Source of the DNA: Mobula hypostoma
Lineage: Eukaryota
Length of the DNA: 64,000 bases
Assembly (NCBI RefSeq): GCF_963921235.1
Contig: NC_086108.1
Coordinates: 56,918,001-56,982,000, forward strand
Reading direction: 5' to 3'
The notes beneath the pieces are model-generated. The model did no database searches. It was not told the DNA's origin and saw only the letters and a program-made list of their open reading frames with translations. Both the position numbers and the translations under genes were made by a program. Below, one piece after another: positions 13,002 to 61,964 of the stretch (positions are counted from its first letter, which is position 1; the number at the start of each line of letters is the position of its first letter).

Positions 13002-13221
13002 AACAACAGGAATTCTGCAGATGCTGGAAATTCAAGCAACATACATCAAAGTTGCTGGTGAACGCAGCAGGCCAAGCAGCATCTATAGGAAGAGGCGCAG
13101 TCGACGTTTCAGGCCGAGACCCTTCGTCAGGACGAAGGGTCTCGGCCTGAAATGTCGACTGCGCCTCTTCCTATAGATGCTGCTTGGCCTGCTGCGTTCA
13201 CCAGCAACTTTGATGTATGTT
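13002..13221. repeat. Fold-back (palindromic) Penelope-terminal-repeat element with 13-bp TSD
   Basis: Inverted arms 13038-13128 and 13131-13221 differ at one position. TSD acaatgatatcaa at 12989-13001 and 13222-13234. Confidence 0.9.
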
Positions 13222-18320: not shown

Positions 18321-19165
18321 ATATGAGGAATGTTTGATGGCTCTGGGCCTGTACTTGCTGGGATTTAGAAGGATGTGGGGGGAGGGAGTAGGATCTCATT
18401 GAAACTTTCCAAATGTTGAAAGGCCTAGTGTGCAAAGGATTTTTCCCATGGTGGAGGAGTCTAGGACAAGAGGGCACAGCTTCAGGATAAAAGGGCATCC
18501 ATTTAAGACAGAGACGCAGAGAATTTTCGTTAGCCAGAGAGTGGTGAATTTGTGGAATTTGTTACCACAGGCAGCTGTGGAGGCCATTAGGTGTATTTAA
18601 AACAGAGATTGATAGCTTCTTAATTGGCCATGGCATCAAAGGTTATGGGGTGAAAGCCTGGGAGTGGGGCTGAGGAGGGGAAAATAGAATCAGCCATGAT
18701 TGAATGGCAGAGAAAACCCAATGGGCCCAATGTCCTAATTCTGATCCCATCACCTCCACTGGAGGTAGTTGGATTGTGACCTGTGACTGTGGCTTGCTTG
18801 CCCTCTGTTAGAAAGAATCAATAGGTTTTGAGATATTAGTATCTCTACTAGGAAAATCACTAAAAAGACAAATGGTGTCCTCTTCTGGTTTGTCCTTCCA
18901 GAAGAAGCTATGACTTCTGTCTTGTTTGATCTGTTCATTGCATCTTGCTCAGGGTGGTGATGTCAATGCCAGAATGTCTGAGGTCACAGGTTACAATGGT
19001 AGAACAATGTTCATGCCTGTTGCTGCTGACACTGTCCACAGTGCTCCTGAACTCCATGTTGAGAGCACATGATGCTGGCATGATTTCCTTTAAATGGGTT
19101 GCACATCAGCTACCACATGGATCTGGTTCAAAGATGGGGGCGGGGGGGGGTGGTTCATGACCACC

Positions 19166-19978
19166 TGTTGGCCATGAAGGAATTAAAGTATGAAAGAAAA
19201 CACCAAACTCAAATAGGTCAAGGACATTGGAAGTAGACAAACCAGATGTCTTTATTCTTCCCATGTGCTTGAAGAAATGGAGGCTGCCACTTTGCGAAGC
19301 TGCTCTGTAACGTCCATTTTGTGAACTAATTCTTGCTCTGGGATAACTTAATCAGAGAAATTGAACGTGGACACAAGGAGTTTCTGTTGATGATCTGCTA
19401 AACCTCAGACCCTTCTCAGATGAAATGTTTATTGTGTACGATGGCATGCTTGCAGAAGTAATCTCATTATCTCGGCCCAGTGCCTGGGTGACCCGGTTTA
19501 ATTGGTTTCAACTGGAACCAATTAGAACTAAAGTCACCTAAGGGCATTATATTGTGCAGCCCTTGGCCATATCCAGTGGGAATCTGACACAGGTCAGTCA
19601 GATGACCTCGAACCAATGAGATTGAAACACAACATTTGAACTGATAAGGTAAGAGTGTAAGAATAAAGGGCTTCAAGTACAAAGGGGAGAGAACTCCAGA
19701 GCTAACTATCATAAGGAAGAACCCTATGCCAGGAACAGGGAGAAAAAGGATCAATCATTTAGCCAACAGGAAATCCTCGATTTCAGTGTTATAAATTAGA
19801 GAAGTTGGCAGAGTGAGTATTGGTAAGAGGGAAGAGTAGAATTCACGTTTTAAGTTGTTGTCCTGGGATCCACATAGTTACGTTGCTGTTTGCGCAGAGA
19901 CAATAAAGTGTAAACTTGGATTAATTAAGAGTTGCATAGTGAATTGACTAATCTAGATTGGTTGATGAACAATCAACA
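19166..19978 (+). repeat. 5' LTR (813 bp)
   Basis: Direct repeat of 32112-32850. TATAAA at 19790-19795 and AATAAA at 19902-19907. Confidence 0.95.
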
Positions 19979-19983
19979 GAGTT

Positions 19984-20001
19984 TGGTGTCCAGGGGTGCA
20001 C
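19984..20001 (+). promoter_or_regulatory. Primer-binding site (degenerate; tRNA-Asn-like, or tRNA-Leu-like)
   Basis: TGGTGTCCAGGGGTGCAC(TCGAA) begins 5 nt after the LTR end. Confidence 0.65.
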
Positions 20002-20149
20002 TCGAAAAGAAACAACAGAGGTCTGAGACCCTAGTTTCGAGTTGAACCACCCACTAGGTTAGGATATTGAAATGTGAAAAGGAAAGGACAAGGAGAACCC
20101 AGGGGGGGTTGGGGGTTTGGAGCGATTACTTTCATAGTAATATTTTATG

Positions 20150-21730
20150 AAAATGGCCCAATTATGACTGGATAAGAAAGGCTGAGCATGTAGGGTCAGG
20201 GACCCTGAGGGATGGATTGGGGAAAACAGTTGGTGAAAAGAAATTACAAGGAATGAAATACAGTTAGCTATTCTAATGGGATGTGTGCTGGAAGATTCAA
20301 TTGAAATGAAGAGGGAGAAACGGAAACTGGCAGAGGAACTGTGTGAGTGTAGGGAAGAGTTAGAGAGAGAAAAGAGCTGGAGAGTGAGAAAGGGAAATTA
20401 AACTCGGGGCAGGCACAGGCAAATTTGATACACGGGTCGGTTTCAGGCTCAGTGTGAACGCACAAAAGAAAGGGAGAAAAGAGGCGTGTAAAAAGGCGAG
20501 TACAAAAGAAGAAAATGGAAAACTCAGTGTCAGGATTTACGGACTGCCATGAATGTCGTACAGAAATCGGCAGCTGGGAAGAAAGGCAGCGCCGGTCACA
20601 CCAAGTGTTTAAAATAGACCAAAAAGCTGAAAAATCAACTCTCAGTTCAGAGACGAGTGATATGTGTAAGGACTGACGATAATGATGATGTCAATGGAGT
20701 GTATGAGGCGATACACCACAATAGCGAGGATTATTGGGGAAATGGCTCGCCTGCCTATGAATTTTTCCAAGAGGGCGTGGAACTTTCAACACCCACTGCC
20801 CCAATGGTGCCCTTGTTAACGGAGAGTTCAGAAGCCAGAGCCAGTCGGACTGGTTGTGACACGGTATTTCCCCCCTTTTGATGTGGCTATAGCTGCGAAT
20901 ATACCCAAGCGCGGTCTGTGAGATAAGCCTCGAGAACTTTCCCAGCAATACGCTGGAATGGATGAAGCAGAGGAACTGAAGTTAACCTTATCGTGTCTGA
21001 CTTCTGTGTTACACTCAGCTCTGCCGGAGGAGGCACAGGCACAAAACCAGGGGACCCCGGGTGATTTACGGGAAGTTATATTAGAAGCTGCAGGGACTAA
21101 TCGAGGTGACCCGGTGGAGGCTTTGCATAAGTACAGACAGTGGAAAGGGGAGCACCCCGTCTATATTTGTGATGAGGCTGTAGCCGGTTTCCTCGAGTGT
21201 TTTCTGGTCCTACCTTGGATAGGCGGAAGTTGACTCAACGACAGAGTAGCAACTGACTGAGGACCTTGGTATCGCACAGTAGAAGAGTGTGTGAAATGTT
21301 TGATCTTACAAATTCCACACGTACTGAAGCGTGGGTTCTCAGAAGGGAGAAAGGTACTAAGGAGGATAAGGGGCAATGAGGTTCTAAAATGGCTCCTATA
21401 AGAGAACATGGAGTGTAGTGTATGGTAGAATGAGAGACGCGGTGCCTATCGCGCTGTGCCGCCGTCATGCTCGACAGCGCCACCTAGTAGAAGGAGATGG
21501 TCAAGGACGCGGTCGGAATGTCTACGTTCCCCTTGTTAGGGATAAGGGATCCCCATGGAAATGCTTCAATTGCTGACACGAAGGTAATTTTACTAGGGAT
21601 TGCCCATAATCTGGACAGGTTGGGAATGGTCAGGATGTAACAAAGGTTCCATATTCGCAATGTAATGTCCAGGGTGCAGATGGAAAGAAGTGTCTGGAGT
21701 TAACTCCAGGGACTCAAAGTGCATAATGAC
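20150..21730 (+). pseudogene. gag: gag remnant (coiled coil, PTAP, capsid-like region, CCHC knuckle)
   Basis: EMKREKRKLAEELCECREELERE; PTAP at 20792-20803; capsid-like ORF 20958-21233; CFNC*HEGNFTRDC at 21562-21603. Many stops and frameshifts; start approximate. Confidence 0.75.
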
Positions 21731-23460
21731 GGTGTGAGGCCTCCTTTACGTGGGATGGTGCTGATAGACCCCTTGTAGAAGCTAGAGTAGGAGGCCCTCC
21801 TATAATTTTTTTTTTTTTTGGGATACAAGAGGCTATCGAACCATCCTAAACACATCCACATTCAATGTACCAAGTTGGCAAATACAAGATTTTATCCGGG
21901 TTTACTGGACATTCACATGCATTGGAGTTGACTACACCACTGAACATACAGTTGGGACTCCATTTGGTTGTGCTCATCGACTTACCAGCTGTTCAAAAAC
22001 ATTTTTCTGGGAAGTGTTTTTATTCAGAAAGCAGGTTTGAGTTTAAATTTGATTTGTTGTGTTATACTTGGCAGTTTACCGTTGATAGAGAGCAGGTCCC
22101 GGATGGCATTCCAGTAGGACTGTATGAGGACAGGATGTATACTTTTGGGGAGAATGTGGGTGATGGCAGAAGATATGTCAGAGGGACTCACAGGCCAGCC
22201 AAATTATTTTCGTCTGCCAGGCAATACGTGCTAAGCATAAACGTAACTGTGGCAGGATGCAAGGAGAGGTTTGTATACAAGGCCCTGATCCAAAACCCTA
22301 GAAGCAATAGCGATTTCCTAAACAAGCAGAGGCAGATTTAGAGATAATTATTCAGAGTTTGTTAACACAGGGAGTTTTGCGAGAAATAACATCTACAAAT
22401 AACTCACCCATGTGGCCACTTCAAAACTCTGATGGGAGTTGGAGACTCACTGTAGGTTACTGGGAATTGAATAAAGTTACCCCTTTAACTATCTCTACTA
22501 TAGCCACATGTCCTGGGATTATGATTAAGCAGAATACTGGATACAAGTAAAGGATCTTGGTCTGTTCCATTGAAAAGGGAGTGTCAATATAAATTTGCTT
22601 TTACCTGAGAAGGACAGCAATATATGGACAGTTTTGCCACAAGAATTTTGAACACACCCTCCATTTTCGATCAATGGTTGGCAACTGGACTGAAAGCTTT
22701 TTCAGCTCCCCAGTGTTTAATTCAATATGTTGATGATCTATTGTTATAGAAAGAGACTGGAGAGGAGCATTATGAGTTATTTAAAGAACTACTGGAACTG
22801 TTACGGGAGATGGGTTGGAAAATTAACCACAGAAAGTCTCAACTCATGAGGCAGCAGCTTATTTATCTGGGAGTGGTCATAACCCTGGGAGATGAGAGAT
22901 TGATAAATGGCATGTGGATGTAGTGGCAAAATGACTTTTCCCCACTGATGTGAGGTGATTGAGCTTATTTCTTGGTGTAGTGGGGTATTGTAGAGGCCAC
23001 AAAGTTGGCGTTGCCACCAAAGCTTATCCACTTGTAGAGCTTTTGAAGAAAGGTGTTGCATAGGAATGGAAACCAGAACACACAGGAAGTTTCAGATCTT
23101 AAAACTAATCTTGCAGAAGTACTTGCTCTTAAGATCCCAAACCTCTTGGAGGTCTCTGCTACCAGTAACATGATATCAGCTGTGTTACTCCAGGAGACAC
23201 TTGGTCAACCGGAACTAGTGGCATATGCATCTTGAATGCTTCCTCCAGTTGAACAAGGATATTCAACAAGTGGGTGTCATCTGTTAGCAGTGTTTTGAGC
23301 AGTTAAATATTTCACATGTTGTGGGCTTTAATTCACTAACCATTTTAACAGAGCATATTCCAATTCAGCTTTTACTGGATAGTTGTATCAAGGGTAAAAC
23401 AGACAGCCAAACTTGATTAGTCCGATGGACATTGCAATTTCAGGGTCGTAATGTCACAAG
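21730..23460 (+). pseudogene. pol: pol remnant: protease, RT and tether-like RNase H
   Basis: WDTRG protease site at 21819-21833; NSPMWPLQNSDGSWRLTV; LPQ; LIQYVDDLLL (YVDD at 22726-22737); LEVSATSNMISAVLLQE...VAYAS. Confidence 0.9.
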
Positions 23461-24390
23461 TTAAAAGATTTCATTTACATATTGTATTTCAGCCGCCTTC
23501 TTGCTATAAATGTACCCTCGATAAGCTGCGCTGTGTTCCTCGCCACAATTGCAGCATTTCAGCCTAGCTCCCGCTTCACATTTCCCATATTCATGTTCTG
23601 CAACGTATCTCCCACATCTTTGTTTTCCTCTGCAGACCGCCACAATGTGCCCGAATTTCTGACATTTATAGCATCTTAAAGGTGGTGGTATATATATTCT
23701 AACCGCATAACACATATACGCAAAGTAAACGTTAATTGGCAATCTCTCTTCGTCAAAGTTAATCATTATCGATAAACTATCACACTTTTTCTGGTTTCTT
23801 GTAACTTTCAAACATTTGGCCTCAATAATTTTTGCTCCTTTTATGTTTTGTTTAATCTCATCCATAGTAACTTTTGTTGGTATCCCTGAAATAACTCCTC
23901 TCCTCCACTTTCTATTGTTGGGTATTGAGCATTTTACTTCTTTGCCGTCTATTTTACATAATCTTATCACTTTGCCTTGCTGTGCACTATCCTGACAAAT
24001 CACTAATAGCGATCCATTTCGTAAAATCTTTGCTCCTTTAATCTCCCCTATAATTTTGTTGAGCATCTTTGTCAAATGAATCGGGTTCCACTCACCAAAA
24101 GACACCCCGTCTTCACTTAGTTTTATAATTGCTTTAATCTCATCTTCTTTCCATTCTTTTGCTGTCCTGTTTTGATCATCCGCTGACTCCTCAGAGTTTG
24201 ATATCCCGTACCTCTGCTTTCTTTTCTTCCTCTTTCCATTCCGTTCCTCTTCCCGCCGAGCTCCATCTCTAGTTCACTTCCACTCTTGCCAAAAACTTCC
24301 TTCAACAGCTTGGCTCTTTCCTTGATGTTCTCTCTCTCCGCCATTTTCCAGTCACAACTCGACTCCTCTCGATCCACTATCCCCCCAGCC
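23461..24390 (-). mobile_element. I-group (Nimb/I-like) LINE 5' end with ORF1, nested in ERV pol
   Basis: ORF 23461-24105 has YIPPPLRCYKCQKFGHIVAVCRGKQRCG...HEYGKC...CCNCGEEH, a triple zinc knuckle typical of I/Jockey-group ORF1. ORF2 is absent. Confidence 0.8.
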
Positions 24391-24559
24391 AGACCTAATG
24401 GTTTCCCAATCCAGCAGCCAGAGGCTGAATCCTGAAGCTATTTATGAAGTCAGCCCAAAAGAGAATCAGCTGCCTCAACAGAAACTGGGGAAAACCGGAA
24501 AACCTGGAATAAGGAGCATGGACCGGACTGTGAACTGGAATGCAGACTTCACGGACCGG

Positions 24560-24774
24560 ATCATGACAAATATGGAGTGGAAGAAACAGCAGAGTAAAGC
24601 TTATTTTGACATATGGACAAAACCTAACAAGTTGGAAATGGGACAGAAGGTTATGATCACGTTACATCAGCTGGGCCATGTTACATCTCTGAGATTTGTA
24701 TGAGGTCAATGACAGAGCAGCCGGTCTATCAAATCCAGACTGCTCCAAGTAAGTTAGGTTGGTATCATATCAAT
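24560..24774 (+). pseudogene. Integrase C-terminal (GPY/F-type) remnant; the motif continues at 29045-29080 after the CR1 insertion
   Basis: KKQQSKAYFD...LEMGQKVM...PVYQIQ...GWYHIN, then N*LS at 29045 (reconstructed WYHINQL). Confidence 0.7.
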
Positions 24775-27700
24775 GTCCTCTTGTAGCTGAGGTTCTTAAG
24801 GCACATTGGCAATGAAATGCTCTGGGCAGAGATGAAGAAACTTTTAGAATTATGTTTCTGGCAATTGACGATAATGAGGATGAAGGAGTAGTTTCCCCTC
24901 TCAGTGAGTTGGGCAACCACTTCCAGTTTGCACCCGGAGGCTAAGGATAGTTCACGTCATACTCAACATCAAGAAGGGAGGGTTAAGGCAAGGCAGTCTT
25001 TGCAAACCTCAAAGCCAAGGCAGAGACAATGAAAGAGAGAAACTGATGGGATACTGCAGATGTTCTAGAAATAAAGGAGGGGGATAGAAGAGTTGAATTT
25101 AGAGGAGGCATCAGAAGAGGCACAGCATTTGGGAAGGGAAGGGAGAGCAGCCAGATGTCTTGGTATATATTGGTACCAATGACATAGGAAGGAAGAGCAA
25201 AGAGGTCCCAAAGAGAGAATTTAGAGAGCCAGGCAGAAAGCTGAGGAGCAGGACCTCCAAGGTAGAAATTCCTGGATTGCTACTTGTGTCACCTACCAGT
25301 TAGGGTAGAAACAGGATGATTTGGCAGATAAATGCGTGGCTGAGAAGCTGATGTTGGGGGCAGGGCTTTAGGTTCCTGGATGGATCATTGGGCTATCTTC
25401 TAGGGATGGGTTGCTTCTGAACCTGAGGAGAACCAATCTTCTCACGAGCAGGTTTGTTAGAGTTGTTGGGGAGGGTTAAAGCTAATTTGGTAGGGGAATG
25501 GGAACTGAAGTGAAGGGATTCAGGGTAGGACGGATGGTAAAAAAGCAAAGATAGTGTGCAGTCAGACTGTCAGGAAGGGCAGGTATATGACAGGACAGAA
25601 TTGCAGCCAGCAGGGTGAGTATCAGTGCATTAGGTTTGCAGAATCAAAAAGGGTAGCAAATACAGTACTGGAAGTGTTATATCTCAATGCATGGTGTAAG
25701 AAATAAGGTGGATGATCTTGTAGCACTTTAACAGATTGTCAGGTATGATGTTGTGGCCATCACTGAATCATGGATGAAGGATGGTTGTAGTTGGGAGCTG
25801 AATGTCCAAGGTTGCACATTGTATCAGAGGGGTAGGAAGGTACGTGGAGGCTGTGGCGTGGCTCTGCTGCTAAAGAATGGCATCAAATCATTACAAAGAT
25901 GTGACAAAGGATCGGAAAATGTTGAATCCTTGTGGGTTGAGTTAAGAAACTGCAAAGGTAAAAGGCCCCTGATAGTAGTTATATACAGGCCTCCAAATAC
26001 GTTTGTAGTAGCTGGGATGTGGACTGCAGATTACAGTGGGAAATAGAAAAGGTGTGTCAAAAGGGCAATGTTATCATAGTCATAGGAGATTTAACAGAGG
26101 TAGATTTGGAAAATCAGGTTGGTAACGGATCCCAAGAGGGTGAATTTGTTGAATGCCTGCAAGATGACTTTTTAGAGCAGTTTATTGTAGAGCTTACAGG
26201 GGGATCAGCTAGAGTGGATTGAGTGCTACGTAATGAACTGGAGTTGATTAGGGAGTTTAAGGTAAAGGAACCCTTAGGAGACAGTGATCACAGTATTATT
26301 GAGTTCAACTTGAAATTTGATAGGGAGAAAGTAAATTCTGACATAGCAGTATTTTAGTGGAGTAAAGGAAATTATAGTGGTATGAGAGAGGGGCTGGTCA
26401 AAGTAACTTGGAAGGAGTTGCTGGCAGGGATGACAGCAGAGCAGCAATGGCTTGAGTTTCTGGGAAATATGAGGAAGGTGCAGGATAGATGTACATGTAT
26501 TCCAAAAACAAAAAAATTAACTCAGATGGCAAAATATTACAACCTTGGCTGACAAGGGAAGTCAAAGCTAATGTAAAAGCAAAAGAGAGAGCATACAGCA
26601 AAGCAAAAGAAGAAGATAGAGAATTGGGAAGCTTTTAAACCCTACAGAGAGTAACTAAATTAATCATTAGGAGGGAAAAGATGAAAAATGAAAGCAAGCT
26701 AGCAAACAATATCAAGGTGGATAGAAAAAGCTTTTTACAAGTATATAAAAAATAAAAGAGAGATGAGAATGGAAATAGGACCACTAGAAATTGAGGCTGG
26801 AGAAATAATAACAGGGGACAAGGAGACAGCAGGTGAACTAAGTGAGTATTTTGCATCAGTCTTCCCTGTGGAGGACACTAGCAGTGTGCCAGTTGTTGAA
26901 GGATGTGAATGAACAGAAGTGAGTGCAGTTAGTATTACAAGGGAGGAGGTGCACAAAAAGCTGAAAGTCCTAAAGGTACATAAGAAGTTGTCCTGTCCAA
27001 GACCGGAAGAAGCTGCAGAAGATCGTGAACACGGCGCAGCACATCACACAAACCAATCTTCCGTCTGTGGACTCACTTTACACCGCACACTGTCGGAGCA
27101 GTGCTGCCAGGATAATCAAGGACATAACCCACCCAGCCAACACACTTTTCGTCCCTCTTCCCTCCGGGAGAAGGTTCAGGAGCTTGAAGACTCGTACGGC
27201 CAGATTTGGGAACAGCTTCTTTCCAACTGTGGTAAGACTGCTGAACAGATCCGGACCCAGATCTCGGCCATACCCTCCAAATATCCGGACCTGCCTCTCC
27301 ATTTTTTTTGCACTACCTTACTTCCCATTTGTTCTATTTTCTATTTATGATTTATAATTTAAATTTTTAATATTTACTAATTTTAACTTTTTAATATTTA
27401 ATATTTGTAATCCAGGGAGTGGGAAGCGCAGAATCAATTATCGCTGTGATGATTGTACGTTCTAGTACCAATTGTTTGGCGACAATAAAGTATAAAGAAT
27501 GTCACCTGGACAAGATGAACTGCACCCTAGGGTTCTGAAAGAGGTAGTGGTAGAAATTGCGAGGGCATGAGCTATGATCTTTCGAGAATCATTGGACTCT
27601 GACATGGTTTCAGAGGACTGGCAAGTTGCAAATGTCACTCCACTCTTTAAGAAAGGAGGGAATCTGCAGAAAAGAAACTGTAGACCAGTTAGCCTGACCT

Positions 27701-29044
27701 CAGTGGTTGGGAAGAAGTTGGAGTCAATTGTTAAGAATGAGTTTATGGAGTACTTGGTGACACAGGACAAGGTAGGACAAAGTCAGCTTGGTTTCCTTAA
27801 AGGAAAATCTTGCCTGACAAATCTGTTGGAATTCTTTGAGGAGATTATAAGTAGGATAGATAATGGGGATGTCGTTGATGTTGTATATTTAGATTTTTAG
27901 AAGGCGTTAGACAAGTTGCCACACATGAGGCTACTTACCAAATTAAGAGTCCATGGCATTACAGGAAAGTTACTAGTGTGGTTAGAGCATTGGTTGATTG
28001 GTAGGACGCAGTGAGTGGGGAAAAAAAAGGATCCTTTTCTGGTTGGCTACCAGTGGCTAGTGGTGTTCTGCAGGGGTTGGTGTTGGGACTGCTTTTTATG
28101 CTGTATATCAAGGATCTACATGATGGAATAGATGGCCAACTTGTTGCCAAGTTTACAGATGATATGAAGATTGGTGGAGGGGCAGGTAGTGTTGAGGAAA
28201 CAGGAAGGCTGCAGAAGGACTTAAACAGATTAGGAGAATGGGTGAGAAAGTGGCAAATGAAATACAGTGTTGGAAAATGCATGGTCATGCTCTTTGGTAG
28301 AAGAAATAAATGTGTAGACTATTTACTAAACGTGAGAAAATCCAAAAACCTAGGATGCAAAGCGACTTGGGAGTCCTTGTGCAGAACACCCTAAAAGTTA
28401 ACCTGCAGGTTGAGTCAGTGGTGAGGAAGGCAAATGCCATGTTAGCATTCATTTCAAGAGGTCTGGAATATAAGAGCAGCGATGAGATGCTGAGGCTTTA
28501 TAAGGCACTGGTGAGGCCTCACCTTGAGTATTGTGAACAGTTTTGGGCTCCTTATCTAAGAAAAGATGTGCTGGCATTGGAGAGGGTTCAGAGGAGGTTC
28601 ACAAGGATGATTCTGGGAATGAAAGGGTTATCATGCAAGGAACATGTGACAGCTCTGAGTCTGTACTCACTGGAATTTAGAAGGATGTGGGAGGGGGGAG
28701 AAATCTCATTGAAACTTTTTGAATGTTGAAAGGCCTAGACAAAGTAAATAGGAATGTTTCCCAGGGCGGGGGGGTGTCTATTTAAAACATGCAGAGAGAT
28801 TTTTTAGCCAGTAGGTGGACGATTTGTGGAGTTTGTTACCACAGGCAGCTGTGGAGGCCAGGTCGTTGGGTGTATTTAAAGCGGAGATTGATAGGTTCTT
28901 GAATGGCCACTGCATCAAAGGTTGTGGGCAGAGGGCCAGGGAGTGGGGCTGTGGAGGGAAAAAGGGATCAGTCACGATTAATTGGCGGAGCAGACTCAAT
29001 GGGCCAAATAGCCTTATGTCCAAATATCCTATGTCTTAAGGTCT
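24775..29044 (+). mobile_element. CR1 LINE (ORF1 SGNH esterase part and ORF2), decayed, inserted at the end of ERV integrase
   Basis: PDVLVYIGTNDIGRK (ORF1); AITESWMKDG, RPVSLTSVVGK, KFTDDMK and LYKALVRPHLEYC (ORF2); possible AAT duplication at both ends. 5' boundary approximate. Confidence 0.88.
26985..27497 (+). mobile_element. Young Rex1-type LINE 3' fragment nested in CR1
   Basis: NTAQHITQTNLPSVDSLY...LPSGRRFRSLKTRTARFGNSFFP; nearly identical to 36236-36845. Confidence 0.85.
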
Positions 29045-29089
29045 AATTAGTTAAGTACAGAAACTGCCCTTGATGTTTAGTGTTCGGAA

Positions 29090-31760
29090 ATGATTCGTAT
29101 TGGAATACTACCGATTGGTGGCCTCATAATGGTTGCAGGCTGTACTGAAGGATATATGTTCTACAATGGAGTGTATTATTGGCTACTTGTACATTCATCT
29201 GAACAGATGTTAGGTATGAAGATTAGGTTGGCAACAGACAGAATATTCACAACATTCATGGAGAGGTCTATTTGGATTATTTCAGATACCATGGTAATAG
29301 TAGTCTGTGTGGGTGAGGAAGGCGAAAAGGAAGTATGAATTTATGAAGAACTAAGAAGAGATTTTGTAAGGAAAAGGAGACCAATGTTTATTGGTCATTC
29401 TGTTTGAGTAACGGTAATATGGGGAAAAGATGGAACTACTAGGATAACAGTGGGAAGTCATGTTTTTTGGGCCCTGCTTCAGAAAAAAAGGGGTAATAAC
29501 TCAGCACTACTTCTTTGTGAATGTAATGGTACTGTTGACATGGACACAAATCAGAAACGAGATTATCGGTTAGCATGTTTCCCAGGCAACTCAATCCCTG
29601 TCACTCTGGAGCCCCAAAATCTTCCGTAAACACCTCACCCCATGTTGGAGCTGTCAACTGTTACTATTCTTATGTGATGAGGCTCAGACAGGTACAAAGG
29701 GAGTAGGACTTGTATTAGAAGAAACGGAAGAATGAATTATTCTAGTACCGGGATGTAGACAAGTGTAAGTGTTGTTTAACTTGACATCACTCCAAATCCC
29801 TAGCTGGTGTGACATAAGCCTCCAGCAGCTTTTCTGACATTTATTAATTGAACAGTTTACCCATTCTGAATTTAAAACATGAGAGAGGTGAAGAAGAGGG
29901 CTTATTAAACTTACAGGAGTGGGATACACAGCTGGAGTTTCCATGGTAAGTACACCAGATATTGCAGAGTTAAACTCTCAGTTCGATTCTCTAAGGCAAA
30001 AGATGAAAGAAATTGTAAATTGAGATTTTCAGGATATGGGAGGAGTTAGCACTTTGGGAAAGGAACAAGTGAATGTATTTTCGGAAATGCTCCATATCTT
30101 ACAACCCTTGGGAAATGTGACAAATCAAATTATTGACAGAGTTAATAATGAAACCACTGCACTAAGGATGCTGTGTGCATAACCCGTATCTCTTGGCTAC
30201 TTTCTGTAATTGGAATTAACATGGTACAATTAGTGAACCACAGGGTTACTGATTGGATTTCAGATGAACAGCTAAAGGAATAGATTGTTACTAACACCCC
30301 AGGGTGACACATTAGGAAGTTCACCTTGACTAATCACCTCCTTGGAAATTGTAGGATTGGGTTTGGAGCACTAAATGTTGGAGATGTTCTTCATATTCCT
30401 TACTATAGTGATGACTGAACATACCAGCTATACAAGGTTCATAATGTTGGGAAATATTAAGAAGCAGTTTGTATTTCACTTACTTAATCCACCTACTTAT
30501 GCCATTAAATAGCAAGGATGTTCAAAGGGAGCATATTTGGCTTTCTGTCATCACAAAGTAGAATACTGGGTTTGTCCAGAGGATTTAATAAAGAATGGGT
30601 TAACAGATTATGTTTTTTTTCTTACGATAACTGTTCTCCATCTATTTTGCCTGTCAATAACAGGACATTCTTGAAATATGATTTGGTGAATGATACTTAT
30701 TACATTGCTACTTCAAGCACACTTTACAAGAAGAGATCTTTAATTTGCAGTTTAATTAACTCTAATGATGCAGTTTCTAATTTTTTGAGGGGCTTACTTT
30801 TAGCTTGGCAAGTATTATCCCATCCAGTTGTAAAACCACCTATTCAACTGAATGTAATGGGCTCCTTAAGGTTGTTATAGTCAGGGGTGGTAAAGGGGAC
30901 AAGCTCCCACTACCTGTTAAATGCTCCCAATGGCGTGCACGTCAAATAGCTTCTGACAACCAAGTCCAGCTCCTGGCCTTCTCGTGTAGCTTAATTTCTA
31001 AGCCCAATGGAATCATTTCTGCTGATAGAAGGGGCAAAGGCGGGTTACTGGCACCTTAAAACCAGTTGCTTTGGGCAGATGGGGCTCGTCAGCCATCTAG
31101 GAGAAGGAAAAAACTGATCTCAAACCTCCACTACCTTGTGGCTGTACCCACTCGTGGGGAAGGCTTCAGGAGTAAGCCCCGAGGGGAAAAATCCAGAGCT
31201 GGAGTTTCAAAGGCAAACCTACATTGAATTCAATGCTGACTGGCAACTCCTGCGACACTGCTGGTACCAAACTGTAACGTTCCTTTTGGTTCATCAGGTG
31301 CATGGAGAGGGAGCTTGCTACATGGGCAACAGCCTGCTCTCCATATTGTACTGTCCAGGCTTGTATATCTAGACTGCCAGGACACAACATCCATAGTCAA
31401 CTCGGACTGAGGTAGGCCTCTGATATATCAATGATACTGTTAAGGGCTCACTTAGATATGTACCTACTGCTCTTCCACCCGTCCCTTATTTTAGTTATTA
31501 ACCAAAATTAAGCTATTAGACAATGAGTTGAATTATCCAAGGCTGTTAGAGATCATGTGGATTTAGCTGATGATGTTTTGCAGAATCCACCCTTTTGGAG
31601 TAAAGTTTGGAACCGAGGTCTGAATGTTAATGTACATCCTTGGATTCATGTTATTTCACTTTATTTTTGTTCTGCTCTTTGTTCTAATGATTATCCAGTG
31701 TATTTTTCCGTGGCTTTCGATGGCTACTTAAACACCTGGAGTATTTATGTGCTAAAGTAC
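29090..31760 (+). pseudogene. env: env remnant: signal peptide, beta-rich domain, and class I fusion (F-like) glycoprotein
   Basis: MIRIGILPIGGLIMVAG leader; (R)ER(R)RR|GLIKLTGVGYTAGVSMVSTPDIAELNSQFDSLRQKMKEIVN at 29880-30020; Cys-rich LAFCHHKVEYWVCP; WSKVWNRGLNVNVHPWIHVIS followed by FIFVLLFVLMIIQCIF near 31600-31710. Confidence 0.8.
30871..31436. mobile_element. Non-autonomous retroelement-like insertion interrupting env
   Basis: Composition shift, with env-like sequence resuming after it. Possible diverged TSD (tgtaatgggctccttaag / tgttaagggctcacttag). Confidence 0.55.
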
Positions 31761-32091
31761 CATTCCAAATCTCTTCATAGTAAGTTTTGTCTGACTTTAT
31801 ACCATCATGTTGTCTTTGAGTATTTTGTACCTTGACCTCATTATATTTTAATTGTTATTATATGCCTTGATAAATGGTTCAAAATTAGGTATATTTTATC
31901 ATGTTTCTTTTATATGCTTTTGCACTGATAATATTTTTAAACGTGCCACTGTTTTGATATTACTTTTTATCTATGTTTTATAGTCTATGACATTTTGTTG
32001 GTATCTTTATCAGTATTATTTGATGTAGTCATAAATGCTGGTGTTCCTTTCGTACTATATTCGCTCAGACATATATACAGTAGTGTGATCC

Positions 32092-32110
32092 AAAGGGGGT
32101 GGGGGGGGAA
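32092..32110 (+). promoter_or_regulatory. Polypurine tract
   Basis: aaagggggtggggggggaa lies 1 nt upstream of the 3' LTR. Confidence 0.85.
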
Positions 32111-32111
32111 C

Positions 32112-32850
32112 TGTTGGCCATAAAGGAATTAAACTATAAAAGAAAACATCAAACTTGAATAGGTCAAAGACAATGGAAGTGGATAAACCAGACATTTTTA
32201 TTCTTGCCATGTGCTTGAAGAAATGGAGGCTGCCATTTTGCGAAGCTGCTCTGTAACTTCCATTTTGTGAACTAATTCTTGCTCTGGGATAACTTAATCA
32301 GAGCAATTGAACGTGGACACAAGGAGTTTCTGCTGATGATCTGCTAAACCTCAAACCCTTCTCAGATGAACTGTTTATTGTGTACGATGGCATGATTGCA
32401 AAAGTCACCTAAGGCATGAAGTTGTGTAGCCCTTGGCAACATCCAATGGGAATCTGACACAGGTCATTCACATGACCTCAAGCCAATGAGATTGAAACAC
32501 AGCATTTAAACTGATAAGGAGAGTGTATAAGAATGATGGGCTTCAAATGCAAAGGGACAAGAACTCCAGAGACTAACTATCATAAGGAAGAACCCCATGC
32601 CAGGAACAGGGAGAAAGACAATCGATTGTTTGGCCAATGGGAGATCCTCTATTTCGGTGTTATAAATTGGAGAAGTTGTCTAAGTGAGTATTGATAGAGA
32701 GGGAACAGTAGAATTCATGTTTTATGTTGTTGTCCTGGGGTCAACAAAGCTACATTGTCACTTGTGAAGTGACAATACAGTGCAAACTTCGATTAATTAA
32801 GAGTTGAGTCATGAAATGCTTAACCTAGATCAGTTGATGAATAGTCAACA
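32112..32850 (+). repeat. 3' LTR (739 bp)
   Basis: Direct repeat of the 5' LTR lacking about 75 bp; followed by the CACC TSD. Confidence 0.95.
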
Positions 32851-61614: not shown

Positions 61615-61964
61615 CAGTGGTCCCAGCCTCTGGGCCGCGGACCGATACTGGGCCGCGAAGAATGCAGAGGTGCAGCAGTAGGCGGAATGCACCCAGCACA
61701 TCTTTAAGAAAAAAAGCCGAAATAAACAAGCTAATTAATTAGGTGCCGCCCGGCTTGTAAATGTCGGCCCAGATCAGAGGCGATGCAATCGGCAATTGCC
61801 TCTGATCTGGGCTGACATTTACGTGCCGGGCAGCACCTAATTAATTCACTTGTTTATTTCAGCTTTTTTCTTAAAGATATGCTGGGTGCATTCCGACTAC
61901 CACTGCACCGCTGCATTTTTCATAGCAATGTATTGGTCCGCGGCCCGGAGGTTGGGGACCACTG
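61615..61964. mobile_element. Palindromic hAT MITE with 8-bp TSD, nested in Tigger
   Basis: TIRs cagtggtccc and gggaccactg. TSD aaataaag at 61607-61614 and 61965-61972. Confidence 0.92.

Follow-up and report, generated by a model that had tools for sequence, protein, structure and literature searches.

An F-type retroviral envelope of stingrays with an additional N-terminal domain, a candidate attachment module, and its decayed copy in Mobula hypostoma

The 64,000 nucleotides analysed here (Mobula hypostoma, GCF_963921235.1, contig NC_086108.1, positions 56,918,001 to 56,982,000; hereafter the window) contain a decayed provirus whose env gene begins with the remnant of an extra domain, placed in front of what is predicted to be a paramyxovirus F-like fusion protein. 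Unbroken versions of this Env are encoded in two stingray genera, and relatives of its core have other modules, or none, at the same position. By analogy with known fusogens we propose, with a probability of roughly two in three, that the domain is a tethered and exchangeable attachment module, with one protein both binding and fusing.

Results

Layout of the provirus

The provirus spans approximately positions 19165–32850 and is interrupted by three later insertions: a LINE-ORF1-like piece, a CR1-type LINE, and a high-copy repeat in env. The first is LINE-ORF1-like by its motifs, and the second is presumably of the CR1 type. The DNA of the window is rich in repeats. The features of the provirus are listed below with window coordinates and strand.

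19165–19978, forward: 5′ LTR (aligned part); blastn to the 3′ copy, 92.5% over 19165–19459 and 83.4% over 19530–19978
20150–21700, forward: gag-position region, broken into reading-frame pieces; assigned by position only
22311–22908, forward: reverse transcriptase pieces with YVDD, broken; Pfam RVT_1, E 5e-11
23095–23334, forward: RNase H-like tether after the reverse transcriptase; Pfam RT_RNaseH_2, E 3e-9
23460–24330, reverse: inserted LINE-ORF1-like piece with a 270-codon frame (ORF 23461–24273) and CCHC knuckles
24330–24775, forward: integrase C-terminal remnant ending in WYHIN; from the translation, motif compared by eye with loki Pol ends
24780–29045, forward: LINE that carries a nested repeat and lies within the end of pol; 8 further matches in the window
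29050–29074, forward: probable last pol codons and stop; from the translation and the position of the LINE
29090–29140, forward: env signal-peptide region; aligns to the hydrophobic stretch (residues ~8–30) of the intact Env
29141–29626, forward: extra N-terminal Env domain, ~160 aa, four conserved Cys; 99/161 identical to XP_059838750 30–192
29627–29669, forward: Pro/Thr linker, shortened and broken; alignment to the intact Env
29670–29897, forward: F2-like subunit and broken furin site; 60/72 identical to XP_059838750 218–290
29898–30856, forward: fusion peptide, heptad repeat A and F1 beta core; 81% and 74% identity to XP_059838750
30851–31422, no strand assigned: high-copy repeat inserted in env; contig depth 3e4–2e5 versus ~1e2 in env
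31424–31707, forward: env C-terminal heptad, membrane-proximal region and TM, broken; tblastn 68–71% to XP_059838750 616–717
32111–32850, forward: 3′ LTR (aligned part); blastn

A 177-aa piece of the gag-position region gave no Pfam match, and neither a second RNase H nor the integrase core was seen in the translation of this provirus copy. Contig depth reaches 4e4–1e5 at the 3′ end of the LINE at 24780–29045. The joint 30850→31423, which is env without the repeat, was seen in three of four runs. The frame under study had been placed just after the pol stop. Because the integrase-like WYHIN sequence (~24760–24775) is cut by the LINE, at most a tail of about nine codons, ending at ~29074, can be pol; the DNA upstream of it is the CR1-type LINE.

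Among PDB entries the reverse transcriptase piece matched foamy virus Pol best (7o0h, E 2e-9), followed by MLV and then Ty3, and these matches include no SnRV or loki entry. Identities over 133 positions, counted by hand and without a tree, numbered 68 (51%) with SnRV and 50 (38%) with Loki-Bsp. Judged from its sequence, the element is probably SnRV-like (class III-related) and not a lokiretrovirus. It has an F-type Env, as lokiretroviruses do; of the lokiretroviral set of tether, second RNase H and CGIN1-like integrase, the tether alone was seen in this copy. A lokiretrovirus identity is weakened by the reverse transcriptase count. The Chondrichthyes row of the lokiretrovirus survey supplement holds three genomes with 0 positives (PMC7947760), and the elephant shark has SnRV-like ERVs, CmiERV lineage I, according to the available text of PMC4422223.

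The frame at 29090 reads as the decayed 5′ end of env

A frame of 180 codons runs from an ATG at 29090 to 29629 with two internal TGA codons, just as the preliminary description had it. Stops fall at 29336 (TGA), 29405 (TGA) and 29627 (TAA), which amounts to three in 184 codons; 5000 base shuffles gave 13.3 on average (P(≤3) = 0.0004), and the remaining five frames over the same region contain 9–13 stops each. The frame break said to separate it from the F2-like region was found near 29,670. Another lies at ~29,470–29,510, where the frame of a stretch beginning WALLQKK departs from that of the intact stingray ORFs, and further ones follow later in env.

For protein searches the frame was translated with X at the stops. 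Among 151 candidates in the search of longer proteins there was a single match, a natural 745-aa ORF from Hypanus sabinus (XP_059838750), which covers 100% of the window frame at 57% identity. By tblastn, this protein aligns piece by piece along positions 29084 to 31707, and the frame at 29090 is therefore read as the 5′ end of env. The domain at 29141–29626 retains all four cysteines, with two stops and one short off-frame stretch (BLASTP E 6e-70). In all three natural proteins, two from Hypanus and one from Hemitrygon, domain and F2 lie in one continuous ORF, and contigs of all four runs cover the domain at a depth equal to that of the rest of env, with several divergent copies in each.

On this sequence evidence, the region 29090–29629 is the decayed 5′ end of env and no separate gene. 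The stop and the frame break that part the domain from F2 in the window would also suit a separate secreted accessory gene, an unrelated insertion or a chance frame, and the first of these had been offered as an alternative; the single ORF in three of three natural proteins, the env-like depth in four of four runs and the depletion of stops leave these readings with a nearly negligible probability. The window copy of env itself is dead and without likely function.

Intact stingray Envs have a predicted F-type core

Unbroken Env ORFs of 745 aa are present in two stingray genera, as XP_059838750 in Hypanus sabinus and XP_072911529 in Hemitrygon akajei, and are 96% identical at the same length. 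They read, in order, signal peptide, ~160-aa domain, Thr-rich linker, F2, furin site, fusion peptide, heptads and TM. In XP_059838750, hydropathy peaks at ~8–30 (signal region) and ~697–720 (TM), the domain with its four Cys occupies residues ~30–192, a Thr/Pro/Ser-rich linker follows at 193–217, F2 starts from Cys220, and the furin site RRRR lies at 291–294, with the fusion peptide and heptads after it.

These ORFs bear out the idea that the domain is coding and in frame with env, since they carry both in one chain, and that a secreted-type domain is fused to an F-type fusogen through a Pro/Thr linker. The linker is real in the intact proteins, where it measures 25 aa and P/T/S make up 56% of the 27 residues that precede the F2 cysteine; in the window it is broken and ~11 residues shorter. 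The PMFIGHSV motif singled out in the window frame is not conserved, the intact ORFs having SRSVDNRG/WG there.

An AF2 model of full-length XP_059838750, built from a 26-row alignment, has long helices at 290–408 and 642–674. Its pLDDT is mostly 65–89 in the core, over most of 221–605, and below 40 in the N-terminal domain. The best Foldseek match was RSV F (E 4e-11), with hPIV3 F next (E 4e-10) and then the F proteins of Langya, NDV and Nipah viruses; foamy Env (8rm1) was matched at E 2e-6. TM-scores are low (0.29–0.31 by query) because one third of the model is unfolded. Matches in a viral fold library were to F-type glycoproteins of lispi-, baculo- and paramyxoviruses, with SnRV Env not by name among the 50 listed, and a profile search matched the Env to PIV F0 (E 0.002). 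Residues ~221–605 are thus predicted to adopt a class Ib (F-type) fold like that of paramyxo- and pneumovirus F. Features of class Ib fusion proteins are present: an F-like three-domain core in the model, together with signal peptide, polybasic site, fusion peptide, heptads and TM.

Two intact ORFs of equal length, 96% identical across two genera, might indicate a domesticated host gene of the syncytin kind, in which the domain was kept for a host function. Hypanus, however, holds a second, truncated copy that is 96% identical, several divergent copies occur in all four runs, and the provirus that holds the window copy is dead. Over the domain, one contig reaches a depth of 59.8 against ~5–9 for others of the same run, which suggests a young multicopy family. 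Domestication therefore seems to us quite improbable.

The domain diverged faster than the core

Compared with XP_059838750, the window copy is identical at 99/161 positions in the domain, 60/72 in F2, 76/94 in the fusion peptide and heptad repeat (FP/HR1) and 165/224 in the F1 core. The domain is less identical than F2 and FP/HR1 taken together (136/166; Fisher p = 5e-5) and also than the F1 core (p = 0.014). Decay after insertion should strike all parts equally, and the lower identity of the domain therefore points to faster divergence while it was still coding. As read from these alignments, divergence of the domain outpaced that of the core while the frame was maintained, an established pattern for receptor-binding surfaces. 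Between the two intact stingray Envs, 8/163 domain sites and 15/524 core sites differ, which is not significant (p = 0.22).

The fold of the domain and the lectin question

The domain had been compared with galectin carbohydrate-recognition domains and with the start of a C-type lectin domain. Galectins are marked by H-x-N-x-R and W-x-x-E-x-R, and C-type lectin domains (CTLD) by their first disulfide, WIGL, EPN/QPD and WND. H.N.R, W..E.R, the CTLD first-disulfide motif, EPN/QPD, WND and WIGL are all absent from the first 215 residues of the four copies inspected (window frame, XP_059838750, XP_072911529 and the truncated Hypanus copy). The details on which the comparison was built also fall away: the cysteine of CTEGY in CTEGYMFYNG, taken for a C-type lectin start, is serine in both intact ORFs, and the galectin-like P-x3-G spacing is, within the domain, present in the window copy only. 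With Pfam, PDB and PHROGs giving no match besides, a canonical galectin or C-type lectin was rejected.

Searches for other homologues were negative within their respective scopes. Pfam returned no family at E ≤ 10 for the 161-aa domain, in a search in which the filters of HMMER discard weaker matches; PHROGs and PDB sequence searches with the domain were blank or at noise level, with one noise-level PDB match for the window frame. A same-length search found none among nine candidates, a word-index search with full-length XP_059838750 found only itself among 6612, and of the candidate stretches in viral and metagenome contigs, 0 of 2 and 0 of 52, respectively, were confirmed. None of the 36 HMMER matches to the Env has its best stretch before residue 209, in a listing that omits the protein's own cluster, so that close domain-bearing relatives may hide behind a 50% representative. 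At the level of sequence, the domain appears to be without detectable homologue outside its virus family.

A beta-rich module had been proposed, and the predictions agree: AF2 of the domain alone, from four near-identical sequences, gave ~ten strands and one helix, in a low-confidence model. With a pLDDT of 34 this model offers no usable fold, and fold searches with it (best Z 4.5, best E 0.14; galectin-3 at rank 50, Z 3.4, within noise) speak neither for nor against a lectin. A structure search of the Atlas with a similarly poor model (pLDDT 0.48) reached TM ≤ 0.41 by query. The language-model feature search of the Atlas with XP_059838750 30–195 placed PF12248 (Methyltransf_FA) first at 0.79, a score exceeded by a third of shuffled proteins, and laminin G and pentraxin at 0.77; eight of the ten best named matches share a family or clan, and the three families agree on a beta-sandwich clan. 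A concanavalin-A-like beta-sandwich is the best lead on the fold, and a weak one; the stingray domain may resemble FAMeT.

One form that an attachment module could take is a concanavalin-A-like glycan-binding lectin (FAMeT-, laminin-G-, pentraxin- or galectin-like) captured from an animal gene. The feature-search matches and the ~ten strands predicted in 160 aa speak for it, and the galectin fold of the coronavirus S1 N-terminal domain is a precedent. Against it stand the shuffled proteins, a third of which score higher than 0.79, the missing galectin and CTLD sugar-binding motifs in four of four copies, the blank Pfam search, and the fact that none of the 36 HMMER matches is a host protein with its best stretch in residues 30–200. 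We regard this form as unlikely.

Related Envs carry different modules at the same position

Fourteen of the 36 core relatives detected by HMMER were fetched. In five of them a long stretch precedes the F2 cysteine; none of these stretches resembles the stingray domain (best BLAST E ~1). The Envs of Mustelus and Pristiophorus share a Cys-rich module (40% mutual identity, E 1e-32). That of the frog Pelodytes is Ig-like: it matches Fab heavy chains in the PDB (best E 0.005), and all 50 matches listed at E ≤ 10 are antibody heavy chains. The Rhinoraja module scores 0.90–0.92 to Ig families in the Atlas, with ten of ten matches in the Ig clan, and has no PDB or Pfam Ig match; the Chiloscyllium protein is Ig-like by its UniRef name. 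One relative, P0037 (Pfam Fusion_gly, E 5e-6), passes from the signal peptide directly to F2 and so has no module; it is visibly of the same family as Loki-Bsp Env and matches XP_059838750 weakly (25%, E 1e-5).

The remaining fetched relatives are either fragmentary or chimeric as gene models. Since several relatives come from automatic annotation, with Rhinoraja (P0031) lacking most of F1 and P0016 and P0032 being chimeric, a host exon joined at that stage is possible in single cases. A tree of the core was built from 19 sequences, with 18 of the 36 HMMER matches left out (fragments, C-terminal-only or chimeric models and some with partial F1). In it the beta module forms one branch (100/99) and the Cys module another (82/99), and the Ig rows fall in two places; the deep forks are not resolved. 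These sequences indicate three or more types of module at the N-terminus of this Env, besides a state without one, and by analogy the N-terminal module is likely swappable with a role in attachment.

Discussion

A proposed tethered module for attachment

The attachment role is drawn from the position of the domain and from analogy. In the mechanism that we propose, signal peptidase and furin would cut the Env precursor, and the domain would stay tethered to F2 by a flexible, probably O-glycosylated linker. Three copies of the module, placed around the rim of the trimer, would engage a protein or glycan on the cell surface and so take on the task that paramyxoviruses give to a separate HN, H or G protein. 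Since a linker joins the module to the N-terminal side of the core, its exchange by recombination would spare the fusion core, and such replaceability would explain how unrelated Ig-like, Cys-rich and beta-rich modules come to occupy one place. Against this reading, loki Envs function without any module, and the core itself may bind a receptor.

The same completeness of module-free loki Envs would fit a shield, a folding aid or an immune-modulating appendage, such as a decoy or a binder of host immune proteins. The Ig-like modules of relatives could mimic host immune receptors, and a surface exposed to antibodies would likewise diverge faster. What tells against an appendage of this kind is the layout, an N-terminal domain on a Pro/Thr-rich hinge, which is that of the gammaretroviral RBD and of coronavirus S1 as far as the available sources describe them, and the retention of different modules in three lineages, which suggests one common job at that position. 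A shield or decoy is a possible, if rather unlikely, explanation, and we retain the attachment module as the main reading.

A wider and doubtful proposal is that SnRV-like retroviruses of cartilaginous fish and amphibians have repeatedly captured animal extracellular domains onto their F-type fusogen, with the stingray domain as a concanavalin-A-like glycan binder. If true, it would mean a retroviral class Ib Env with a lectin joined to it, parallel to the N-terminal domain of the coronavirus spike.

In the available text of PMC11468914, F is proposed as a minimal scaffold to which binding modules were added, N-terminally in coronavirus and ahead of the furin site in foamy virus, and a shortage of fusogens showing gain or loss of domains is remarked on in comparing class Ia with class Ib. 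The principle of a class Ib Env bearing a module at its N-terminus is known, and the stingray module and the series of alternatives appear to be undescribed: in the literature open to us, mostly outside subscription journals, we found neither this domain nor any N-terminal module on F-type Envs of sharks or rays described. Among vertebrate retroviral F-type Envs, a single alignable family shows the position in four states (empty, Ig-like, Cys-rich and beta-rich), a series that lets one ask how class Ib fusogens gained attachment and whether their modules came from hosts. Our findings also suggest that F-type Envs are not confined to loki and foamy viruses and occur in SnRV-like retroviruses from sharks and rays as well. 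With no relative detected outside its family, the structure of the domain is worth solving.

Comparison with known systems

Among the close parallels are the Envs of lokiretroviruses, which are vertebrate LTR elements; these Envs share the F-type fold, signal peptide, furin site (RXKR), fusion peptide, coiled coil and TM, whereas Loki-Bsp and Loki-Aro run from the signal peptide straight to F2 without a module (available text of PMC7947760). Paramyxo- and pneumovirus F and the errantivirus F-type Env have the same predicted fusion core. The former depends on a separate attachment protein, unlike the stingray Env, and for the latter no N-terminal extra domain is described in the part of bioRxiv 2023.10.26.564294 available to us.

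Foamy Env likewise combines an F scaffold with a receptor-binding module of its own, but its RBD measures ~330 aa, lies just before the furin site and comes with a leader peptide (PMC11468914, in its available part). The stingray module, in contrast, is ~160 aa long and stands N-terminal to F2 behind a short signal peptide. A foamy-type internal RBD was rejected, as only ~72 residues separate the F2 cysteine from the furin site.

SnRV and CmiERV lineage I are parallels in the reverse transcriptase, which in the window element resembles that of SnRV, and in a known cartilaginous-fish host of SnRV-like ERVs; no Env architecture is given in the available text of that account (PMC4422223). The gamma/alpha-type Envs likewise have an independent N-terminal domain that moves between lineages, and unlike the stingray Env they are of class Ia; their RBDs have been transferred, in one case by capture from a host Ig gene (SIRP), in an account whose available text makes no mention of sharks, paramyxoviruses or lectins (bioRxiv 2024.03.17.585361). 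The coronavirus spike belongs to another virus order and has a far larger S1, and searches found no sequence or fold link between it and the stingray module. In general plan it is nonetheless alike, with a class Ib core that bears binding modules at its N-terminus (PMC11468914, same part).

The provirus in the window

By hand count, the reverse transcriptase encoded at window positions 22311-22908 is nearer to that of snakehead retrovirus (SnRV) than to that of a lokiretrovirus, a sequence likeness which suggests that F-type Envs are carried by SnRV-like viruses. The second RNase H and the integrase core of the provirus seem to have been deleted, and their expected place is occupied by the following insert:

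23460-24330, minus strand, LINE-ORF1-like insert

Dating of this provirus by its LTRs (19165-19978 and 32111-32850) is unsafe, because the two aligned segments are unequal in divergence (92.5% versus 83.4% identity) and are separated in the 5' LTR by about 70 additional bases. Elsewhere in the window, near-perfect inverted repeats with spacers of 2-149 nt were observed at 13038-13221 and 61622-61956; these are probably head-to-head repeat copies.

Intact stingray Envs and related sequences

The Envs of Hypanus sabinus (P0004, XP_059838750) and Hemitrygon akajei (P0005, XP_072911529), two stingray genera, are both intact, 745 amino acids long and 96% identical, and may reflect domestication or a recently active family. 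Two gene models, P0016 and P0032, in which pieces of the stingray-related Env family are fused to a TRP-like channel and an F-box protein, are probably annotation chimeras. When the AlphaFold2 model of P0004 was searched against the viral fold library, the predicted Envs of the walleye epsilonretroviruses WEHV1 and WDSV matched at ranks 11 and 20 (E-values 3e-9 and 4e-8) with very low TM-scores, and these matches between models possibly involve long helices only.

Other N-terminal modules of Envs

A second N-terminal Env module, Cys-rich and unrelated to the extra stingray domain, is common to two sharks of different genera (Mustelus and Pristiophorus), with 40% identity between the two modules; it had no match in Pfam. 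Ig-like modules occur on three F-type Envs, which fall in two places on the tree of 19 Env cores.

P0011 (XP_078086612), residues 20-140, Cys-rich module
P0026, residues 40-168, Cys-rich module
P0013 (GCC29952), bamboo shark, Ig-like module
P0017 (KAM8960540), frog, Ig-like module
P0031 (XP_078281906), skate, Ig-like module

In addition to its Ig-like module, the frog Env possesses a long leader, together with a second furin site (residue 62), an arrangement that recalls the foamy virus leader peptide.
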